A program made the position numbers and the translations under genes. Shown here piece by piece: positions 11,434 to 17,705 of a stretch of DNA of 64,000 nucleotides; the stretch's first letter is position 1, and the number at the start of each line of letters is the position of its first letter. Source of the stretch: Candidatus Hodarchaeaceae archaeon (GTDB taxonomy: Archaea > Hadarchaeota > Hadarchaeia > Hadarchaeales > Hadarchaeaceae); NCBI GenBank assembly GCA_030016755.1, contig JASEJC010000001.1, positions 4,883-68,882 of the forward strand, in the 5' to 3' direction. Below the pieces are notes generated by a model, which ran no database searches, was not told the DNA's origin, and saw nothing but the letters and a program-made list of their open reading frames with translations.

Positions 11434-12072
11434 ATGAAGAAAGGCGAACGGGTTCTGCGCGAGATCCTATACCGCTTTCACGAGCGCAATGAGCGGTTCA
11501 TGAGCCAAAAGGCGCTGGCGGAGGCTTGCGGACTTTCCCTTGGCACGGTCAACCCAATCGTGCGCAGGCTAGAACAGCTTGGCGCCATCGAGAAGAAACC
11601 CCTAGGATTTAGGGTCAGCGATGTGACGCGCATCCTGCTGTACTGGGCCAGCAAGAGGAACTTGGCTAAGGATATAGTCTATAGCACCAGCACTTCCCTC
11701 TCAGCAGCAAATATTGAGAAGGACCTGCCCCAAGGCTCGGTTATGACTGCCTATTCTGGTTTCAATGCTAGATTTGGTGAAGTGCCGATAGACTATCAAG
11801 AAGTTTATGTGTATGCAGACCCGGCTGAGCTGAAGCGAAGGTTCCCCCGCGCGCGAGGCCGTTTGAATAACCTCATCGTGCTGAAGCCAGATGAACACCT
11901 CATTCGACTCAGCGAGGGAGGTATTGCCCCCCTAGCCCAGATTTACGTTGACCTGTGGCAACTTGGTGATCCGGCAAAAAAACTCGTCGATGAACTCGGC
12001 GCGCGGATGCGGGCAGGGGAGATAGGTGCGCTTCAGGGGATTATTAAAAGGACCCGGGAGCGGCCCGGATAA
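11434..12072 (+). CDS. Winged-helix transcriptional regulator with an uncharacterised C-terminal domain
   Basis: MSQKALAEACGLSLGTVNPIVRRLEQLGAIEKK forms the wHTH. The start was set at ATG 11434 (MKKGERV). Confidence 0.6.
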   Translation: MKKGERVLREILYRFHERNERFMSQKALAEACGLSLGTVNPIVRRLEQLGAIEKKPLGFRVSDVTRILLYWASKRNLAKDIVYSTSTSLSAANIEKDLPQGSVMTAYSGFNARFGEVPIDYQEVYVYADPAELKRRFPRARGRLNNLIVLKPDEHLIRLSEGGIAPLAQIYVDLWQLGDPAKKLVDELGARMRAGEIGALQGIIKRTRERPG

Positions 12073-12940
12073 TCGACTTCTCAAGCTTTAGGAGCAGAGC
12101 CTTTGCGCCCTCCAAGTTTGCCGTTTTACCCCTACACCGCGAACACGCTGCTGCTGCACGCTCGATATCTTTGCGGAAGCTCTCGTATGGTTTTGCCGCC
12201 TCAATTATCCTGTTCACAAGTGCCCGGATTTGCTTTGCCGGCACTTCAAATGTGCCACAGAAGGGGCACCCTGCCAACTCCTCAACGGCGCTGACCCTCA
12301 TTAAGGCCCGGTCTGGTCCCGATGGGTGCCGCTTCTTGACCAGGCGAACCGCATCCTCTGGGCAAACCTCCTCACAGCTGGCGCAACTGATGCACTTATC
12401 GTACATGAATTTCACCGTTCGCTTGTTGCCCTCGTCCGCCAGCTCTATCGCGGATGTTGGGCATGCCTTTTCACATGCGCCGCAGCCCGTACACTTCTCT
12501 GAATCAAGCTCGGGCTGCCCCCTGAAACCCTTGGGGGCCAGCCAGCGTCTGTACTTGACACCCATGGTCCGAGCTACCCCCTCCCCTATCGCCTGGGGAC
12601 TGGGTGGGCAACCAAGGACATACAAATTAACCGGGATGAACTTGTCCGTTGGTTCAAGAGCACTGTACGATTTCTGGAAAATCCCGCTTGATAGAGCACA
12701 CGTACCAACTGCAATCACGGTTTTGGGTTCCCTGAGCTTGTTGTAAACTTCCTTGAGGGGTCCCGCCATTTTTGCGCTGACGACTCCAACAACGAGGAGC
12801 ATATTCGCTTTCTCGGGCTCGTCCACTATTCTCGCTTTGAGATTTCCAATACCGAACCTCTCAGCCAGTGCACACACTACCTCGATGTCGCAGCCATTGC
12901 AGGAGCCAACGTTCAGGCGGTAAACTCCTATCTCGCTCAC
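12044..12940 (-). CDS. [NiFe]-hydrogenase small subunit (NuoB/MbhJ/EchC-like) fused to a 2x[4Fe-4S] ferredoxin domain and a CxxC-x37-CxxC tail
   Basis: GSCNGCDIEV, GTCALSSG and GCPPSP are the NuoB-type cluster ligands. CTGCGACEKACP and CISCASCEEVCP follow, then CPFC...CSRC. GTG start at 12940. Confidence 0.85.
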   Translation of the reverse strand: MSEIGVYRLNVGSCNGCDIEVVCALAERFGIGNLKARIVDEPEKANMLLVVGVVSAKMAGPLKEVYNKLREPKTVIAVGTCALSSGIFQKSYSALEPTDKFIPVNLYVLGCPPSPQAIGEGVARTMGVKYRRWLAPKGFRGQPELDSEKCTGCGACEKACPTSAIELADEGNKRTVKFMYDKCISCASCEEVCPEDAVRLVKKRHPSGPDRALMRVSAVEELAGCPFCGTFEVPAKQIRALVNRIIEAAKPYESFRKDIERAAAACSRCRGKTANLEGAKALLLKLEKSIIRAAPGSF

Positions 12941-12951
12941 CTCAACCCGTC

Positions 12952-14277
12952 CTAAATTCCCGTACTAAACTGTACAGGCAATTTTTCTGGCTCCATCCCC
13001 AGCTTCGCTTGGGCTACAAGCCCATCCACTGGGGACTGCATCTGCCAGCAGTCGGCGGGGACGTGCCTCGCCCCATCCTTAGCTATGTTCCAGCTCGCCA
13101 CCAAGTGACGGCTGGCCTCGAACCCGCAAGCTTTGCACCTGTAGGTGTGCCCATTCGGCCTGTTGTACCGGCCACATATCGGGCAGTCCTTCGACTTGTG
13201 GTAGTTGCTGACCTCCACCGTTGGCAGTCCTTGTCGCGCCACCTTGTACTCGGCATAGAACTGGAACTTTCGGAAAGGCCACTGGTTGAGCCTCCTGCGC
13301 ATGTCCTTCCGCAGGGCCCTGCCGTTCTTCGACTTGCGCTTCGAGCGCATGAAACCACGAATTCCCTTGATACCCCCGAAGGTGACCGCGACTCGCTCTC
13401 GCTCGGCAATCTTGGCGATCTGTTTGCTGACAACGTGTAGGATCTGGTTAGTGCGGTTGCGCTCCCTTCGCCAGTACTTCGCCTTGAGCCTGCGCTTCTG
13501 CACCGGTCGCTGCGGTGGCGTATCCAGCTTTCGCTGAATCGATTTGCGCTTGAGCTGTGACGAGTGCCTTATCGCGGGGAGCTTTGAGACATCGAGACTG
13601 ATGTGTTTTGGCTGTTCGTTTGGCTTCAGGATGGTCAAATCAACGCTCTGCTCGTTGATGTCTATGCCGCAGATGCCCTCCGTTGGCCTCGGTTCCACCT
13701 CGCACTTGAACGGCACAAAAACATTGGCTCGATCTTTGAATAGCGAGATCGTGATTTCCCCGACTTTCTTTTTACCTTCCCGCCAGTCGCGGAGGTATCG
13801 GAGTACGTGGTGCTCGGTCACCACGAGCGGAAGCCAAAGGTACTCCCCGCGACGGATTCTGATTTGAATCACATTTCCGCAGAACCTGCAAACGCCAGTT
13901 TGGTTTCTATCGCCCCAGAGTTCTAGGCGCATTGTCCGCGCTTTGTAGGCGGGTGGCTTCTCCGGGTTCGCCTGTCCTTGGCGACAGAGCTTCCGCCACG
14001 AGCGGAGCGTCTGCGTAGCCATCTGCCCGGCCGAGTGGAACCAGTGCGTCGCTAGATCAAAGCGCGACTTCCACTCCTCGTAGGCGACGTGATGTAGCGA
14101 GGCGCGGGAAGTAACCTTATGTTCGAGGCACTTCTGGATGTAGAAGTTAACCGACTCCGCGAACTTGCCGAGGAGATCGCCCAGCAGCTCGCGCTTTCGC
14201 CCAGTCAGCGGAGGTGTAATGAATCTAGCGGAGCTGACGGACTGCACATCTTCTACCTCCGATGCGTTTTCTACCAT
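12952..14277 (-). CDS. TnpB-like (IS200/IS605 OrfB family) protein with apparently degenerate RuvC motifs II and III
   Basis: GICGIDINE (RuvC-I), zinc ribbon CPICG...CKACG and C-terminal WNIA are present. The expected IVxEDL reads VAVTFGGI, and the expected RDxNAAxNI reads RHLVASWNI. The track ORF extends to GTG 14412. ATG 14277 (MVENAS) lies about 45 nt downstream of a TATA-like box. Confidence 0.85.
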   Translation of the reverse strand: MVENASEVEDVQSVSSARFITPPLTGRKRELLGDLLGKFAESVNFYIQKCLEHKVTSRASLHHVAYEEWKSRFDLATHWFHSAGQMATQTLRSWRKLCRQGQANPEKPPAYKARTMRLELWGDRNQTGVCRFCGNVIQIRIRRGEYLWLPLVVTEHHVLRYLRDWREGKKKVGEITISLFKDRANVFVPFKCEVEPRPTEGICGIDINEQSVDLTILKPNEQPKHISLDVSKLPAIRHSSQLKRKSIQRKLDTPPQRPVQKRRLKAKYWRRERNRTNQILHVVSKQIAKIAERERVAVTFGGIKGIRGFMRSKRKSKNGRALRKDMRRRLNQWPFRKFQFYAEYKVARQGLPTVEVSNYHKSKDCPICGRYNRPNGHTYRCKACGFEASRHLVASWNIAKDGARHVPADCWQMQSPVDGLVAQAKLGMEPEKLPVQFSTGI

Positions 14278-14320
14278 TTTCTGCCCAAGCCACTTTGGGG
14301 GAGGGGGGTCTCCGAAAGTA

Positions 14321-14338
14321 ATATATAAACTATTTAAA
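14321..14338 (-). promoter_or_regulatory. TATA-like box (minus strand CCTTTAAATAGTTTATATAT) upstream of the TnpB-like ORF
   Basis: AT-rich box in an otherwise GC-rich spacer, about 45 nt upstream of ATG 14277. Confidence 0.4.
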
Positions 14339-14449
14339 GGGCTCCCAGGCACGACCTGATTGTCTTCTAGAGCCCATTTTTGGTGCCTTTTTTCGCCATT
14401 TTTCAGGGGCACCGAAAGTATTCCCCGAATGATACGGTCTGGTACGGTT

Positions 14450-15595
14450 TTATGTAGCAGCTACAACACCCCTCAGCTCATCTAAAGTGACCCGCCTGCT
14501 CCTTCCCGTCCGCTCGTCCACGACAGTGACGCGATTCGTACAGGAGATGCAACGGTCCAGGCTCTCCAAAATCACTGGGAAGTCGGCTAGTTTTTGTTCG
14601 CGGAGCATCTCCACGACGGCTCGATCGTTCATGTAAGTAGGTGGCCTGAGCTTAACCCGTTCTGGATAATTTGTTCCGTTCGACCTCACATAATAAATAA
14701 GCTCGCCTCGCGGTGCCTCCACTCTGCTGAAGTCCTCCCCAACCAGCGGCTCCCTAATATCCACGCTAATTTCACCTTTAGGCATGCGCTCGATTAGCTG
14801 TCGGATAATTTTCACGCTTTCCAAAGTCTCCCTCGCCCGAACCAAAGCCCTTGAAAAAACATCGCCCTCCTCTTCCGTGGGGATTTCGAAATCCACTTCC
14901 CCATAGGCGGCATACGGGTCGTCTTTCCGTATATCGCTTTCAACACCTGATGCTCTGAGCACGGGGCCCACTACACCGTATGCCCTTGCTTTACCCCTAG
15001 GTAGGGGACCGAGCCCCGAAAGCGTGGGCGCTGCATTCCTAAGCTCTCTTGAAATGTCATCAGTGAGGGTTTCGAGGTCACCCATCAGAGACTTCACTGC
15101 TGCCAACATCCTCTTGGTCACGTCGCGCCTGACCCCACCTATCGAATTTATCGAAAAGTGCACCCGGTTGCCGCAGATGGACTCGATTAAATCCATCAAG
15201 CTCTCACGAGCGTTGATGATTTTAATGAACTGACCTTCGTTGTGTAGTGTATGAAAAAACAACCCAAACCACATGTAATGACTGTGCAAACGATCCATCT
15301 CAAAAACTAGTGACCTGATATTTCTCGCCCGCGCCGGAACTTCCGCGCCGAAAATCTTTTCCACCGCTTGGCAATATGCCGTGGAGTGGGCTTGGGAGCA
15401 CAACCCGCATACGCGCTCAGCCAGGAAAACATTTTGAACAAATGACTTCGATTCCATCAGGCGCTCAATCCCACGATGCGTATAGCCTTGCCTAATTTCC
15501 ACATCAGTAATTTTGCCATCGCGCACAGTAATCTCGTATAACTCTGGCTCCAGCAACAAGGGGTGATATGGCCCTACCTTTACCACATCGAACAT
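14450..15595 (-). CDS. [NiFe]-hydrogenase large subunit, group-4-like (EchE/MbhL/NuoD fold)
   Basis: N-terminal Ni-binding pair RVCGLCSQAH and C-terminal pair DRCISCTNR are both present. VGPYHPLLLEP and GYTHRGIE are family motifs. Confidence 0.9.
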   Translation of the reverse strand: MFDVVKVGPYHPLLLEPELYEITVRDGKITDVEIRQGYTHRGIERLMESKSFVQNVFLAERVCGLCSQAHSTAYCQAVEKIFGAEVPARARNIRSLVFEMDRLHSHYMWFGLFFHTLHNEGQFIKIINARESLMDLIESICGNRVHFSINSIGGVRRDVTKRMLAAVKSLMGDLETLTDDISRELRNAAPTLSGLGPLPRGKARAYGVVGPVLRASGVESDIRKDDPYAAYGEVDFEIPTEEEGDVFSRALVRARETLESVKIIRQLIERMPKGEISVDIREPLVGEDFSRVEAPRGELIYYVRSNGTNYPERVKLRPPTYMNDRAVVEMLREQKLADFPVILESLDRCISCTNRVTVVDERTGRSRRVTLDELRGVVAAT

Positions 15596-16462
15596 TTACC
15601 CAATCCTCGCAGCCAGTTGGGAGACTGGGCTTCGATGAAACTCTAACGACAGCTCCTTTGCAGGTACACTAAAGGCGAGGGCTAGAAGCTCAGCTAAGTG
15701 TAGACATGGGACCGAAAACTTTTCGCCGTATCTTCTGAGGTCAAGCTGCCCTGATTCAAACTGAACGTTGCATGCGGGACACACCACCGTGACGCCATCG
15801 ACCCCCACGTGTTGATAGCACTTCAGCTTAGGGAGGAGGTTGTGCTTCAGCGAAAACTCTTTATCTACTTGGGATGTCGGAAAACCGCAACACATCTGAT
15901 CTAAATCACAGCGGATGACCTCAGCCCCCGTCGCGCGCACTAGCTCCTCGAACTGCCTTGGCTTCCTCCAGATGTCTCCACCGTCTTCCTCCCTGAAGAG
16001 GTGACAACCGTAGTGTACCGCTAGCTTCAGGTTAAGCGGTTTCTTGACCCGCTCCTTTATCGCTTCGACTCCGACATCCTCATGGAGAACCTCTACAATG
16101 TGCCTGACCTTTATTGTCCCCCCGTACTTCCTCCCCACCTTGGTCAAGAGCTCATTGATCTCGCCGGCAGTTTCCTCCTGTTTCATGGCTTCGTTGGCCT
16201 CCCACAGTGTCTCAAAACAGCCGTTGCACAGCACCACAACATCGAGGCCCTGTTTCTCCGCTATGCTCAAGTTCCTAGCCGATAGGGAGAGCGCGACCTT
16301 CCTATCCATCAGGCGTGCCAAGATTGGGTCCGGGCAACATGTGTAGCCCGACATGTCCGCGATCTCGAGCCCAAGCGAACTGAAAACTTTGCGTGTGGCC
16401 AGTTCAGCGCTGGGGAGCCGCTGGGGTATCAAACAACCCAAGAAAAGAGCATATTTTTTCAC
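15596..16462 (-). CDS. HdrB-like protein with two CCG domains (heterodisulfide-reductase subunit B family)
   Basis: YALFLGC...YTCCPDP and ...QMCCGFP...CPAC are the CCG-type Cys motifs. The probable GTG start at 16462 overlaps the NuoC-like stop (GTGA). Confidence 0.8.
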   Translation of the reverse strand: MKKYALFLGCLIPQRLPSAELATRKVFSSLGLEIADMSGYTCCPDPILARLMDRKVALSLSARNLSIAEKQGLDVVVLCNGCFETLWEANEAMKQEETAGEINELLTKVGRKYGGTIKVRHIVEVLHEDVGVEAIKERVKKPLNLKLAVHYGCHLFREEDGGDIWRKPRQFEELVRATGAEVIRCDLDQMCCGFPTSQVDKEFSLKHNLLPKLKCYQHVGVDGVTVVCPACNVQFESGQLDLRRYGEKFSVPCLHLAELLALAFSVPAKELSLEFHRSPVSQLAARIG

Positions 16463-17130
16463 TTTTTCGTCCCCCTCAATTTCTTCCGCTCCCAATCGTA
16501 GCCGACCCGCTCGCTGAAACTCGTCTGCTTGATTAGCTCGTGAACCTCTTTCAGCTGGGGCTCGCTCGAGTAACTTGCGGGGGGTTGGGGAGGTAGCCCC
16601 GCCTCCACGCGCCTGCGCTCAACCAAGGGAGTTATGGGCGCAGTGGCACCGACGGTTGTAATAGCCTCAGCTACGGGGGTGATTTCATCTGGCACTGGGG
16701 GCTTGAAGGGCTTGCCCAGCGGGAAACTGCCCTCCGGCCACTCGTCTTGTAACACCAAATGCCTCGGCTCGGGATGGTCCCTGAATTTCGCCCCGCAAAG
16801 CTCGGCTGCCTCCTTCTCCGCCCATTCCGCCGCCGGAGTCAGGCCGACTATGCTATCGATTTCAGGGTTCTCCTTCGCCAACCTTGTTTTCAGCACCACG
16901 ACCCTACCCGTTAAATCGAAGTGGTAAAGCAACTCGATATCCAACCCCACATCGATGGCTGCGATGATTATGAACCGTGCCCCCCCACCAAGCAGGCTCT
17001 CGGTGGCCTTTCTTATCGCCCCAGGTGTTATCTCCGCCCAAACCTTGCGTTCTCGAGGCGTGGACGCGTTCAGAAGTTCGTCCCCGAGGTTTTCCTTCAG
17101 GAGTTTAACTATTGCGTTTTCCTCCACCAT
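16459..17130 (-). CDS. NuoC/MbhK/EchD-like 30-kDa hydrogenase subunit
   Basis: LLYHFDL...PAAEWAEKEAAELCGAKFRDHPEPRHL. The start was set at MVEENAIV (17130), after AAAGGAGGTG, overlapping the upstream stop (TAATG). Confidence 0.85.
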   Translation of the reverse strand: MVEENAIVKLLKENLGDELLNASTPRERKVWAEITPGAIRKATESLLGGGARFIIIAAIDVGLDIELLYHFDLTGRVVVLKTRLAKENPEIDSIVGLTPAAEWAEKEAAELCGAKFRDHPEPRHLVLQDEWPEGSFPLGKPFKPPVPDEITPVAEAITTVGATAPITPLVERRRVEAGLPPQPPASYSSEPQLKEVHELIKQTSFSERVGYDWERKKLRGTKK

Positions 17131-17705
17131 TACACCTCCTTTAGATATCGACTTCGCATGAACTCTGACGCTTCGGCGCGGGTGCCAACCCTGATCGCTT
17201 GAGGGGAGCAGTACTTGGCGCACTGAGGGTCGCCGTCGCAGAAGTTACACTTGGTTGCGACGCGGTGCTCCTCGTCGAACCATGCTGCGGCAAGGGGGCA
17301 GGCGTAGATGCAGGAGCGGCAACCGGTGCACTTCATCGGGTTTATTGCCACCCATCCCGTGCGCTCGTCCCTAGTAATTGCGTCCTCCGGGCAGGCGGCA
17401 ACGCACACCGGGTTCTCGCAGTGTAAACAGTTGTTCGCTTCACGCACAAACTTCTGATCGTCGATGAAAACATGAATATGGGATTTCTCCGGGTTGAGGG
17501 TGCCGAAGTTTCTGTGGGCGCACGCGATCTCACAATACCGGCAACCCGTGCACCGTTCCGCATCGTAGATAAGCACGAGCTGCTCCTCCTTAGACTTCTC
17601 CAAGAGGGTCGCCTCTTTTGCCGAAAGGGGGCTGATGCGCTTAAGGCTTTCGTTTCTTGCCACCCAAGCTGCGTTCGAAAATTTCCTCGCCCGGTTTCCA
17701 CCCAA
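17130..17705 (-). CDS. Poly-ferredoxin of the HycB/DmsB type (four Cys clusters)
   Basis: CTGCRYCEIAC, CLHCENPVCVAACP, CTGCRSCIYACP and CNFCDGDPQCAKYC. The start is uncertain because the ORF overlaps the 3' end of the upstream gene by about 65 nt. Confidence 0.8.
   Translation of the reverse strand: MGGNRARKFSNAAWVARNESLKRISPLSAKEATLLEKSKEEQLVLIYDAERCTGCRYCEIACAHRNFGTLNPEKSHIHVFIDDQKFVREANNCLHCENPVCVAACPEDAITRDERTGWVAINPMKCTGCRSCIYACPLAAAWFDEEHRVATKCNFCDGDPQCAKYCSPQAIRVGTRAEASEFMRSRYLKEV

Follow-up and report, generated by a model that had tools for sequence, protein, structure and literature searches.

A probable transposase-less IS607-family element in a [NiFe]-hydrogenase operon of Hadarchaeota, with a tnpB gene that has lost its RuvC-II glutamate

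The locus and its genes

The window discussed here is the whole stretch of DNA that was analyzed, 64 kb in length. On its minus strand lie, in the order in which they are read, a gene for the large subunit of a group-4-type (NuoD-like) [NiFe]-hydrogenase (14450..15595), identified by profiles and orthologue alignment; a tnpB gene (12952..14277); and a gene for the hydrogenase small subunit (12044..12940), identified by profiles as NuoB-like with a 2x[4Fe-4S] domain. The two hydrogenase genes are parted from one another by an insertion sequence (IS) of which tnpB forms the greater part, and the large-subunit gene is the target into which this IS inserted. A first-pass annotation of the window had described an intact TnpB-like gene, without two of the canonical RuvC acidic residues, between the large- and small-subunit genes of a hydrogenase, and that description holds. 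The reading frame is indeed intact over about 440 codons. In its longest form it runs from a GTG (12952-14412, 486 aa); the ATG at 14277, which gives a protein of 441 aa and a stop, is likely to be the real start. The distance of 11 nt from the tnpB stop to the GTG of the small-subunit gene is borne out. The distance of 38 nt reported between the large-subunit stop and the gene is correct only when measured from the upstream GTG, and the stop in question itself lies inside the left end of the IS.

The 441-aa protein matches NCBI protein MDI6642456.1 at 100%. The motifs by which it was first taken for a TnpB (GICGIDINE, the zinc ribbon CPICG...CKACG, and a C-terminal WNIA) are all present, and profiles and fold agree. 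It scores 102.6 bits against the NCBIfam profile guided_TnpB (NF040570), just over the 100-bit cut-off, and 51.1 bits (cut-off 26.3) against the Pfam profile Cas12f1-like_TNB (PF07282), a match that covers the zinc ribbon (Cys365 to Cys384; 13126..13185), whose four cysteines are invariant. The AF2 model (pLDDT 82) predicts the TnpB/Cas12f fold, comprising WED, REC, RuvC and zinc-ribbon domains, and Foldseek places it closest, among PDB structures, to Cas12f, TnpB and Fanzor (E-values 1e-18 to 1e-7). The TATA-like box noted earlier upstream of the gene can be read in the sequence at 14320..14339 (CTTTAAATAGTTTATATATT), ~45-60 nt 5' of the tnpB ATG, and this puts it within the IS; a similar TATA occurs in the related locus L001, followed there by ACTTTCGGTGACC.

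Boundaries and ends of the element

The first-pass annotation saw no recognizable IS ends and bounded the feature at 12941-14449. Both ends become visible once relatives are aligned. At the DNA level, 15 related loci are homologous to the window within 12947-14472 only, their flanks being unrelated, and a sister contig that is 98.3% identical (L033) departs from the window exactly at 14472. The element so defined (12947..14472, minus strand) is about 1,526 bp long when the GG of both junctions is counted. Its two boundaries both sit within G-runs, and so are uncertain by 2-3 nt each.

The left end (GGGGTGTTGTAGCTGCTACATAAAACCGTACCAGACCGTATCATT...ACTTTCGGTGCCC; 14405..14472), with the motif GGGGTGNTGTARCTGCTAC, has a pair of subterminal ACCGTA repeats spaced by 11 nt. 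This block is kept 5' of tnpB, or of tnpA-tnpB, in L001, L005, L010, L011, L012, L015, L016 and L033, and the sequences farther left are unrelated. The right end (TGTACAGTTTAGTACGGGAATTTAGGACGG; 12947..12976), with the motif GGGAWTTTAGGACGG, has a pair of (G)TAC(G/A)G repeats, in the orientation opposite to that of the left-end pair, and a terminal GG. The sequence ...GGGA(A/T)TTTAGGAC-GG, in which the hyphen marks the boundary, is kept in 15/15 loci, and what lies beyond it is again unrelated. The two pairs of repeats, and their opposite orientations, are conserved across loci. In the window, the junctions read ...CTGA-GGGG... and ...GGAC-GGG.... The target reconstructed from them is a run of 5 G; the window has 7 G, the 5 of the target and 2 more, and nothing else is duplicated. 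Both termini of the element are thus GG, its target is (G)GG, and it shows neither target-site duplication nor terminal inverted repeats; GG junctions, a (G)GG target, the lack of target-site duplication, and subterminal repeats are features of IS607 elements (PMC6188088). No clear TAM consensus emerged from the left flanks of 8 junctions.

In L010 and L012, a complete IS607 serine-transposase gene separates tnpB from the left end (NF033518, 197-200 bits, cut-off 110). In all, tnpA is found directly 5' of tnpB in three related loci (L009, L010 and L012), and as remnants in two (L013 and L014). The product of these sibling tnpA genes is a serine recombinase with a MerR-type HTH (NF033518), and we therefore assign the element to IS607 rather than to IS200/IS605. 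A canonical IS200/IS605 element, for which a Y1 tnpA was sought, is rejected on the same ground. Within the 64 kb window, neither a tnpA nor a second copy of the element was found, as the first-pass annotation had reported. The window copy is a non-autonomous derivative, since tnpA is absent here and present in sibling elements, and it would have been mobilized in trans. IS607 derivatives without tnpA are common. The sister genome, GCA_030018345.1, has at least three loci of the family, and the genomic contexts of all other copies differ. The lineage is archaeal, and occurs mainly in Hadarchaeota and Bathyarchaeia MAGs.

Insertion into the hydrogenase operon

Orthologous operons were compared, and those at L032 and L035/L036 have no insert. 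In these empty sites the large subunit is 378 aa long, and the stop codon of its gene overlaps the start of the small-subunit gene by 4 nt. The large subunits of the orthologues end in ...LDELRRLK or ...RRIR; those of the window and of a 99% relative are 381 aa long and end in ...LDELRGVVAAT. This altered tail (...R-GVVAAT and stop, encoded by GGT GTT GTA GCT GCT ACA TAA; 14450..14470) lies within the conserved left end, and the last six codons of the gene, together with its stop (14450-14452), come from the IS.

The sister genome contains several copies of the IS, and assemblies there break or switch flanks at it: L030 and L031 stop within the left end, and L033 has another left flank. One might therefore suspect an assembly artefact, either a chimera formed across copies of the IS or, behind the substitution E301G discussed below, which appears in the window assembly only, a consensus error. 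We consider this very improbable. The junction between the large-subunit gene and the left end is found also in L030 and L031, which belong to two other assemblies, and that between the right end and the small-subunit gene is found in a third contig, L033. When the element is removed in silico, moreover, the junction that results matches the empty-site orthologues both in length and in the 4-nt overlap. Because the junctions recur in other assemblies and contigs, and because removal restores the empty site, we take the insertion to be real.

Before insertion, the G-run GAGCTGAGGGGGTTGAGGTGA would have formed the overlapping stop/start junction of the large- and small-subunit genes. We infer that a serine transposase, acting in trans, inserted the element at a GG within this run. 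The last three codons of the large-subunit gene would thereby have been replaced, turning ...R-GLR and stop into ...R-GVVAAT and stop, and about 1.5 kb would have come to lie between two genes that were formerly translationally coupled. The element may exert a polar effect on the small subunit. The locus would then be a case, in a Hadarchaeota population, of an inserted IS that gives a [NiFe]-hydrogenase large subunit a new C-terminus and breaks its coupling to the small subunit.

Between the window and the sister strain, the small-subunit gene itself has 12 non-synonymous and 4 synonymous changes, where the background is 70:85. The Fisher p of 0.03 is not corrected for the 18 genes compared, and relaxed selection on the small subunit is therefore not claimed.

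Hydrogenase, HdrB, NuoC and FeS neighbors were sought in all fetched loci of the family, and matches were obtained in the sister strain only. There, in GCA_030018345.1, a copy that is 99% identical lies 5' of the same small-subunit gene. With the matches confined to the sister strain, the family has no linkage to hydrogenase genes.

The structured RNA and its guide position

Covariation and synonymous constraint together point to a structured, ωRNA-like RNA over the 3'-terminal ~160 nt of tnpB (12947..13108, minus strand), ending at the right end of the element. Its best-supported helices fall within 12954-13072. Compensatory changes occur in 20/47 pairs of the structure, and 96% of cells are paired, versus 34-46% in slid controls; shuffle controls were included too. 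Over the same region, identity at synonymous codons climbs from about 0.65 to 0.9 and dS falls 2-4 fold. The placement of the scaffold, at the 3' end of tnpB and abutting the right end, is that of a predicted ωRNA. An Rfam scan of 12700-14700 returned no known RNA family, ωRNA-type motifs included. No more than 5 nt separate the end of the tnpB frame from that of the element, and the whole of the scaffold is therefore inside coding sequence. Because the structured RNA stops at the right end, a guide would derive from the flank: the position predicted from TnpB/ωRNA architecture is 12927..12946 (minus strand), which covers the small-subunit GTG at 12940. A search of the window with the guide-position sequence found its own flank as the sole match.

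The catalytic site

Counts at the catalytic positions refer to the family alignment of 69 full-length homologues. The RuvC-I aspartate, Asp206 (13660..13662), is invariant in 69/69. The RuvC-II glutamate is replaced in the window copy by glycine, Gly301 (codon GGG; 13375..13377), and the motif there reads VAVTF-G-GIK, as against VAVAF-E-G/D-IK in 68/69 homologues. The RuvC-III aspartate is replaced by histidine, His391 (codon CAC; 13105..13107), and this is so in 69/69 close homologues, autonomous IS607 copies carrying tnpA among them; DRD is retained here by two distant homologues, P0102 and P0103. In place of the canonical D-E-D triad, the window copy thus has Asp206, Gly301 and His391, and the clade consensus is D-E-H.

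That histidine stands in place of the RuvC-III aspartate had been read correctly from the single sequence, and both family and profile alignments confirm it. The absence of an acidic residue at RuvC-II had been read correctly as well; the position concerned, however, is Gly301 and not Thr299. A phmmer pairwise alignment to PDB TnpB sets Thr299 opposite the catalytic glutamate. We reject this placement: by the family alignment and the profile search it is a 2-residue slip, brought about by the missing glutamate of the window copy. The profile alignment identifies the Gly301 column with the catalytic glutamate of Cas12f and TnpB, and the positions where a glutamate and an aspartate might have been recovered, RuvC-II and RuvC-III, are occupied by Gly301 and His391.

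The sister copy, P0224, is identical to that of the window at 435/441 aa and has Glu301, encoded by GAG, versus GGG in the window. E301G is therefore a single A-to-G change (window position 13376), seen in one assembly only. The presence of Glu301 in 68/69 homologues, and in the 99%-identical sister copy, marks the substitution as private and very recent, and it is no sign of a new RNA-guided regulator. Its source is the consensus of a single MAG; a minority variant or an error may lie behind it.

In changing the RuvC-II glutamate to glycine, this recent A-to-G would most likely have abolished cleavage by the window copy. Large TnpB clades do exist in which RuvC-II has glycine and the glutamate has been relocated (PMC10691335), and in the window copy the remaining protein is conserved and the ORF intact; by analogy with those RuvC-II 'rearranged' clades, another acid might compensate for the lost glutamate and the protein might still be an active RNA-guided nuclease. 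We think this highly improbable. The four substitutions derived in the window TnpB (C46Y, V86M, E158V and E301G) add no acidic residue and remove one, the canonical glutamate is present in 68/69 relatives, and in the TnpBs studied so far any mutation of the DED residues abolishes activity (10.1101/2023.11.30.569447).

For the clade at large the picture is different. The family dN/dS is about 0.11, and on this comparison of sequences the D-E-H TnpB clade is under strong purifying selection. Because of that selection, and because autonomous elements carry it, the D-E-H TnpB would presumably still work as the RNA-guided homing nuclease of its element.

Regulator, relic or recent knockout

The first-pass annotation had listed an RNA-guided regulator among the possible roles. 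One of the TldR kind would be a domesticated, nuclease-dead TnpB whose guide RNA regulates the hydrogenase operon or some other locus. The window copy has features that suit this idea. Two of the three canonical acidic residues are gone, both the reading frame and the ωRNA-like structure remain intact, and the gene lies inside the operon in the same orientation, with a guide position that overlaps the start of the small-subunit gene. Set against the family, however, the idea fails, and we regard it as extremely unlikely. His391 is common to autonomous IS607 copies. E301G is private, and the sister copy 5' of the same small-subunit gene has glutamate. Both transposon ends are kept, and 0 of roughly 20 other loci are near a hydrogenase. 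Binding at its own locus would not be expected from the architecture, because the guide match is preceded, on its 5' side, by the right end of the IS and not by the former left flank. TldRs, moreover, are defined by clade-conserved RuvC decay and new gene associations (bioRxiv 10.1101/2023.11.30.569447). Several copies with defined IS ends had been named in advance as a finding that would refute the proposal, and such copies exist: the sister genome is multi-copy and both ends are defined.

A decaying IS had been offered as another possibility, and of the three roles proposed it is here that the evidence points, in the form of an IS copy with a catalytic defect; general decay is not supported, and we reject it. 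At sites that are >=95% conserved, the window copy has 4 private changes, and the family median is 3. Compared with the sister strain, tnpB has 6 non-synonymous and 17 synonymous changes, no worse than the 70:85 of neighboring genes. With no excess of non-synonymous change, 'decay' comes down to one catalytic substitution and three other derived changes, and the catalytic change alone stands out. The tnpB frame, the ωRNA-like helices and both element ends are still intact.

In a more adventurous version of events, which we rate as a slim prospect, the Hadarchaeota/Bathyarchaeia IS607 clade would cleave in an RNA-guided manner through a true D-E-H RuvC site, and would then be a TnpB of thermophile origin with altered metal or substrate chemistry; the window copy would represent the first step of an exaptation: a freshly dead TnpB that still loads its ωRNA, with a guide over the small-subunit start, and is able to bind IS-free alleles or transcripts. 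We prefer to regard the locus as a transposase-less IS607-family tnpB with a recent, private loss of its catalytic glutamate, belonging to a selfish element rather than to a host regulator, and we put the probability of this reading at roughly 85%. Because a single recent change most likely abolishes cleavage, the window copy is best seen as a freshly disabled gene of a selfish element, and not as a regulator of its host.

Comparison with known systems

Members of the IS607 family, such as IS607 of Helicobacter pylori and IS1535 of Mycobacterium tuberculosis, encode a serine-recombinase TnpA and a TnpB, and the siblings of the present element share their tnpA-tnpB order. The element itself shares with them GG junctions, a (G)GG target, and the lack of terminal inverted repeats and of target-site duplication (PMC6188088). 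It differs in that tnpA has been wholly lost; from the left end to the tnpB ATG there are just 195 nt. Base-level boundaries, a predicted ωRNA structure and a target site are now given for a lineage of archaeal IS607 elements with a conserved D-E-H TnpB.

With the TnpB/ωRNA (OMEGA) nucleases, e.g. ISDra2 TnpB and ISFba1 TnpB, the window protein shares profile, fold, zinc ribbon and a structured RNA overlapping its 3' end. Here, in contrast, the catalytic residues are D-E-H in the clade and D-G-H in the window copy, the scaffold is wholly coding, and it has no match in Rfam.

Like the TldRs, the window copy has the TnpB fold without a full set of RuvC acids, and a guide-RNA-like structure adjoins it. 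Unlike theirs, its inactivation is not conserved in its clade, E301G being found in 1/69 homologues; its transposon ends are intact, its siblings carry tnpA, it has no conserved link to a non-transposon gene, and its host is archaeal. The outcome is a clean negative: an apparent archaeal, hydrogenase-linked TldR is in all likelihood a non-autonomous IS607 copy of the ordinary kind, in which a single base change has knocked out the catalytic site. A call of 'nuclease-dead' made from a single sequence can mislead when it is made without a family alignment.

Clades in which the RuvC-III aspartate has become histidine are known (the RIIIr branches; archaeal Ser-6, RIIIr-6), and Altae-Tran et al. 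2023 (PMC10691335) regard them as probably active. The clade described here resembles these RIIIr-type TnpBs (PMC10691335): it is likewise archaeal, associated with a serine recombinase, and D-to-H at RuvC-III, with RuvC-I and RuvC-II conserved. Its D-E-H lineage is a possible test case for histidine in the place of the RuvC-III aspartate.

Identity and ends of the element

The TnpB-like gene between the large- and small-subunit genes of the hydrogenase belongs to an ordinary, non-autonomous insertion of the IS607 family (window 12947–14472, minus strand). It is a new member of that family rather than a new kind of element, and its novelty is low. The first-pass annotation had picked out a real feature and described its residues rightly; among the roles that it offered, an IS copy is the one that fits.

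The window and 15 related loci share nucleotide homology over one block and nowhere beyond it. Its 3' limit lies 5 nt past the tnpB stop codon, in every locus at ...GGGA(A/T)TTTAGGAC followed across the junction by GG, after which the sequences are unrelated; on the 5' side lies a conserved block, GGGGTGATGTAACTGCTACATAAAACCGTA..., and everything to its left is again unrelated. GG is found at both junctions, the target being (G)GG, and neither terminal inverted repeats nor a target-site duplication occurs at the ends. Short subterminal repeats are present: the left end (near 14472) has two copies of ACCGTA, and the right end (near 12947) two inverted copies of (G)TAC(G/A)G. All of these properties match the published behavior of IS607 (PMC6188088). 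Two related loci, L010 from a Bathyarchaeia MAG and L012 from Hadesarchaea WYZ-LMO6, have a gene of 208–211 aa between the left-end block and tnpB; it scores 197–200 bits against the NCBIfam equivalog ‘IS607 family transposase’ (cut-off 110). The gene is present also in L009, and as remnants in L013 and L014. In the window copy both ends and tnpB are present but tnpA is absent; no second tnpB, nor any tnpA, was found elsewhere in the 64-kb window.

The 195 nt from the left end to the tnpB ATG include, at window 14278–14420, two copies of the motif TACTTTCGG(T/A)G(A/C)CC, the second directly after a TATA-like box. Between them lie the inverted repeats GGTGCC...GGCACC and GGGCTC...GAGCCC. This arrangement may be a promoter or leader that has been duplicated; alternatively, the 5' UTR may be structured.

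The tnpB gene and its catalytic residues

The open frame runs on the minus strand from a GTG at 14412 to 12952. We place the start of tnpB (12952–14277, 441 aa) at the ATG at 14277, which is common to the homologues and to the NCBI model MDI6642456.1 (100% identical). The protein narrowly exceeds the cut-off of the NCBIfam TnpB model (102.6 bits versus 100), and passes that of the Pfam Cas12f1-like TNB domain. Its AlphaFold2 model (31 homologues as input; mean pLDDT 82) finds its best PDB matches among Cas12f, TnpB and Fanzor complexes. One homologue is longer (P0070, 519 aa; locus L006, 3513–5072). Its frame continues through the right end for ~100 nt beyond ...CTTAGGAC and the GG that follows, and its length is therefore probably due to read-through at the element end rather than to a new domain.

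Catalytic positions were compared in 69 full-length homologues of 52–85% identity. Asp206 of RuvC-I (GxCGIDxNE) is present in all 69. In RuvC-II the strand is VAVAF-E-(G/D)-IKGIR: 68 sequences have the Glu, and the sole exception is the window protein (VAVTF-G-GIKGIR). At RuvC-III all 69 have His (RH[LF]VA[SA][WY]NIAKD), whereas among distant relatives from the same search DRD is kept in P0102 and P0103, and P0100 has Gln. The family profile puts residues 301 (Glu) and 391 (His) on the catalytic Glu and the RuvC-III Asp, respectively, of Cas12f and TnpB. The earlier claim that two RuvC acids are missing thus holds in substance, but the RuvC-II position is Gly301 and not Thr299; a single-sequence alignment slips by the same two residues. 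The two substitutions differ in history: His391 is clade-wide, and Gly301 is private to the window copy. In the TnpBs studied to date, cleavage is lost when any one of the three triad residues is mutated (according to 10.1101/2023.11.30.569447), and on this ground we infer that the window copy has no catalytic activity.

A recent loss of the RuvC-II glutamate

P0224, the tnpB product of locus L033 in the sister genome GCA_030018345.1, differs from the window protein at 6 of 441 residues. The window state is derived at four of these (C46Y, V86M, E158V and E301G), and none introduces a compensating acidic residue; Q210, T299 and F309 are common to both copies. Codon 301 is GAG in L033 and GGG in the window; in the window copy a single base change of recent date has probably disabled the nuclease. 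In tnpB the two strains differ at 17 synonymous and 6 non-synonymous sites, a ratio no worse than in neighboring host genes (85 and 70 in total). These differences therefore point neither to a long-term relaxation of constraint nor to selection for the dead state. Fourteen of the 23 codon differences, 13 of them synonymous, fall within 38 codons (60–97; window 13987–14100), a cluster that resembles a tract of gene conversion by another IS copy.

An ωRNA-like structure at the right end

Across 12 loci, synonymous-codon identity rises from ~0.65 over most of tnpB to 0.8–0.95 in the last ~90 codons, where pairwise dS drops 2–4 fold. RNAalifold, run on 15 loci, folds the stretch from ~13108 to the right end into nested helices, with pairing kept through changes on both sides in 20 of 47 pairs. 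Paired cells amount to 96%, versus 84% in shuffles (none of 500 matches the observed value) and 34–46% for slid partners, which also give a covariation score of 0.05–0.10 against the observed 0.41. The helices are retained in the window copy, whose terminal stem has a single G·G mismatch. No Rfam family matches. The layout is the usual one for TnpB, in which the guide is taken from the flank; here the flank at that position, GGTTGAGGTGAGCGAGATAG, spans the small-subunit start and has no other match within the window.

The insertion site

The element lies between a NuoD-like [NiFe] large subunit (14450–15595) and a NuoB-like small subunit with a fused 2x[4Fe-4S] domain (12044–12940), both on the minus strand. 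In two element-free orthologous operons (L032, at 81% identity, and L035/L036, syntenic from the TGT gene through the small subunit), large-subunit stop and small-subunit start overlap by 4 nt. Orthologous large subunits have 378 aa, with ...LDELRRLK or ...RRIR at the C-terminus; the window protein and its 99% relative have 381 aa and end ...LDELRGVVAAT, with GVVAAT and the stop encoded by the first 21 nt of the conserved left end after its GG. Removing 12947–14472 in silico, with one GG kept, gives GAG CTG AGG GGG TTG AGG TGA (...ELRGLR, 378 aa) and restores the GTGA overlap. The two window junctions together hold seven G, five of the target plus the duplicated GG core. Length, overlap and G count together indicate that the element landed precisely in the overlapping junction of the operon.

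In the large subunit the nickel-site motif CxxC...R (DRCISCTNR) is kept and the change is limited to the extreme tail beyond it, which, judging from hydrogenase maturation in general, may be tolerated. An effect on small-subunit expression is likely, and is one of two residual points of interest. Relative to the sister strain the small-subunit gene differs by 12 non-synonymous and 4 synonymous changes (large subunit 5:15; other genes 70:85), an excess (Fisher p 0.03, uncorrected) that is not significant after multiple testing; constraint may have relaxed after insertion.

Upstream of the subunit genes are HdrB-like, NuoC-like and ferredoxin-like genes, the order of the cluster (12044–17705) being ferredoxin-like 4Fe-4S, NuoC-like, HdrB-like (CCG domain), NuoD-like and NuoB-like + 2x[4Fe-4S]. 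No membrane subunits lie nearby, and the cluster is syntenic with TGT–AsnC–IF-2B in other Hadarchaeota (L035). The hydrogenase is apparently soluble, group-4-like and partnered by HdrB, and may merit separate study.

Mobility of the family

Every other locus of the family has different neighbors, and none is near a hydrogenase. GTDB species representatives, chiefly Hadarchaeota, mostly have one locus each, although MAG assemblies tend to under-represent repeats. The sister genome (‘Hadesarchaea archaeon’; 98.3–98.5% identical over ~14 kb) has three relevant contigs. L030 stops inside the left end, directly after the large subunit; in L033 the same small-subunit gene is immediately preceded by a 99%-identical IS, whose left flank is another one and parts from the window sequence precisely at 14472; and in L034 a 90%-identical copy adjoins a Na/H exchanger gene. 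Together with a family-wide dN/dS of ~0.11, the differing contexts and sister copies indicate a functional IS family that transposes occasionally, and not a host gene.

In L033 (JASEFD010000009.1, 5740–5830) the left neighbor is an unrelated MJ1316-like gene, and the L030 contig (6880–6973) ends 55 nt into the left end; at both junctions the left end provides an identical in-frame TAA stop. An assembly that is chimeric across IS copies could explain this, as could a genuine rearrangement, mediated by the IS, that split the operon. Two diverged copies (L016 and L017, ~63–65% aa identity to the window protein) have the same right flank, which ~10–110 nt downstream of the right end resembles a tRNA gene (...GCGGGGGTGCCTGAG...GGTTCGAATCC), and suggests an old, vertically inherited insertion beside a tRNA.

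NCBI labels the source of the window proteins ‘Candidatus Hodarchaeaceae archaeon’ (Asgard). For both the hydrogenase and TnpB the nearest relatives belong to Hadarchaeota, and because of this and the near-identity to the ‘Hadesarchaea’ genome the label looks like a Hod-/Had- mix-up.

Comparison with known TnpB and TldR proteins

TldRs are defined by clade-conserved RuvC decay, new associations with non-transposase genes, and guides to TAM-flanked promoters (10.1101/2023.11.30.569447). The first two were tested, and the window copy displays neither. Altae-Tran et al. (PMC10691335) describe several TnpB branches in which the RuvC-III Asp has become His, as well as archaea-specific rearranged branches (Ser-6 and RIIIr-6), and take conserved rearrangements to imply retained activity. 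The D-E-H clade (RuvC-I, -II and -III residues) agrees with this pattern, with its zinc finger kept and its serine-recombinase link, and we assign it to no named branch. The chemistry of its predicted site is the other residual point of interest.
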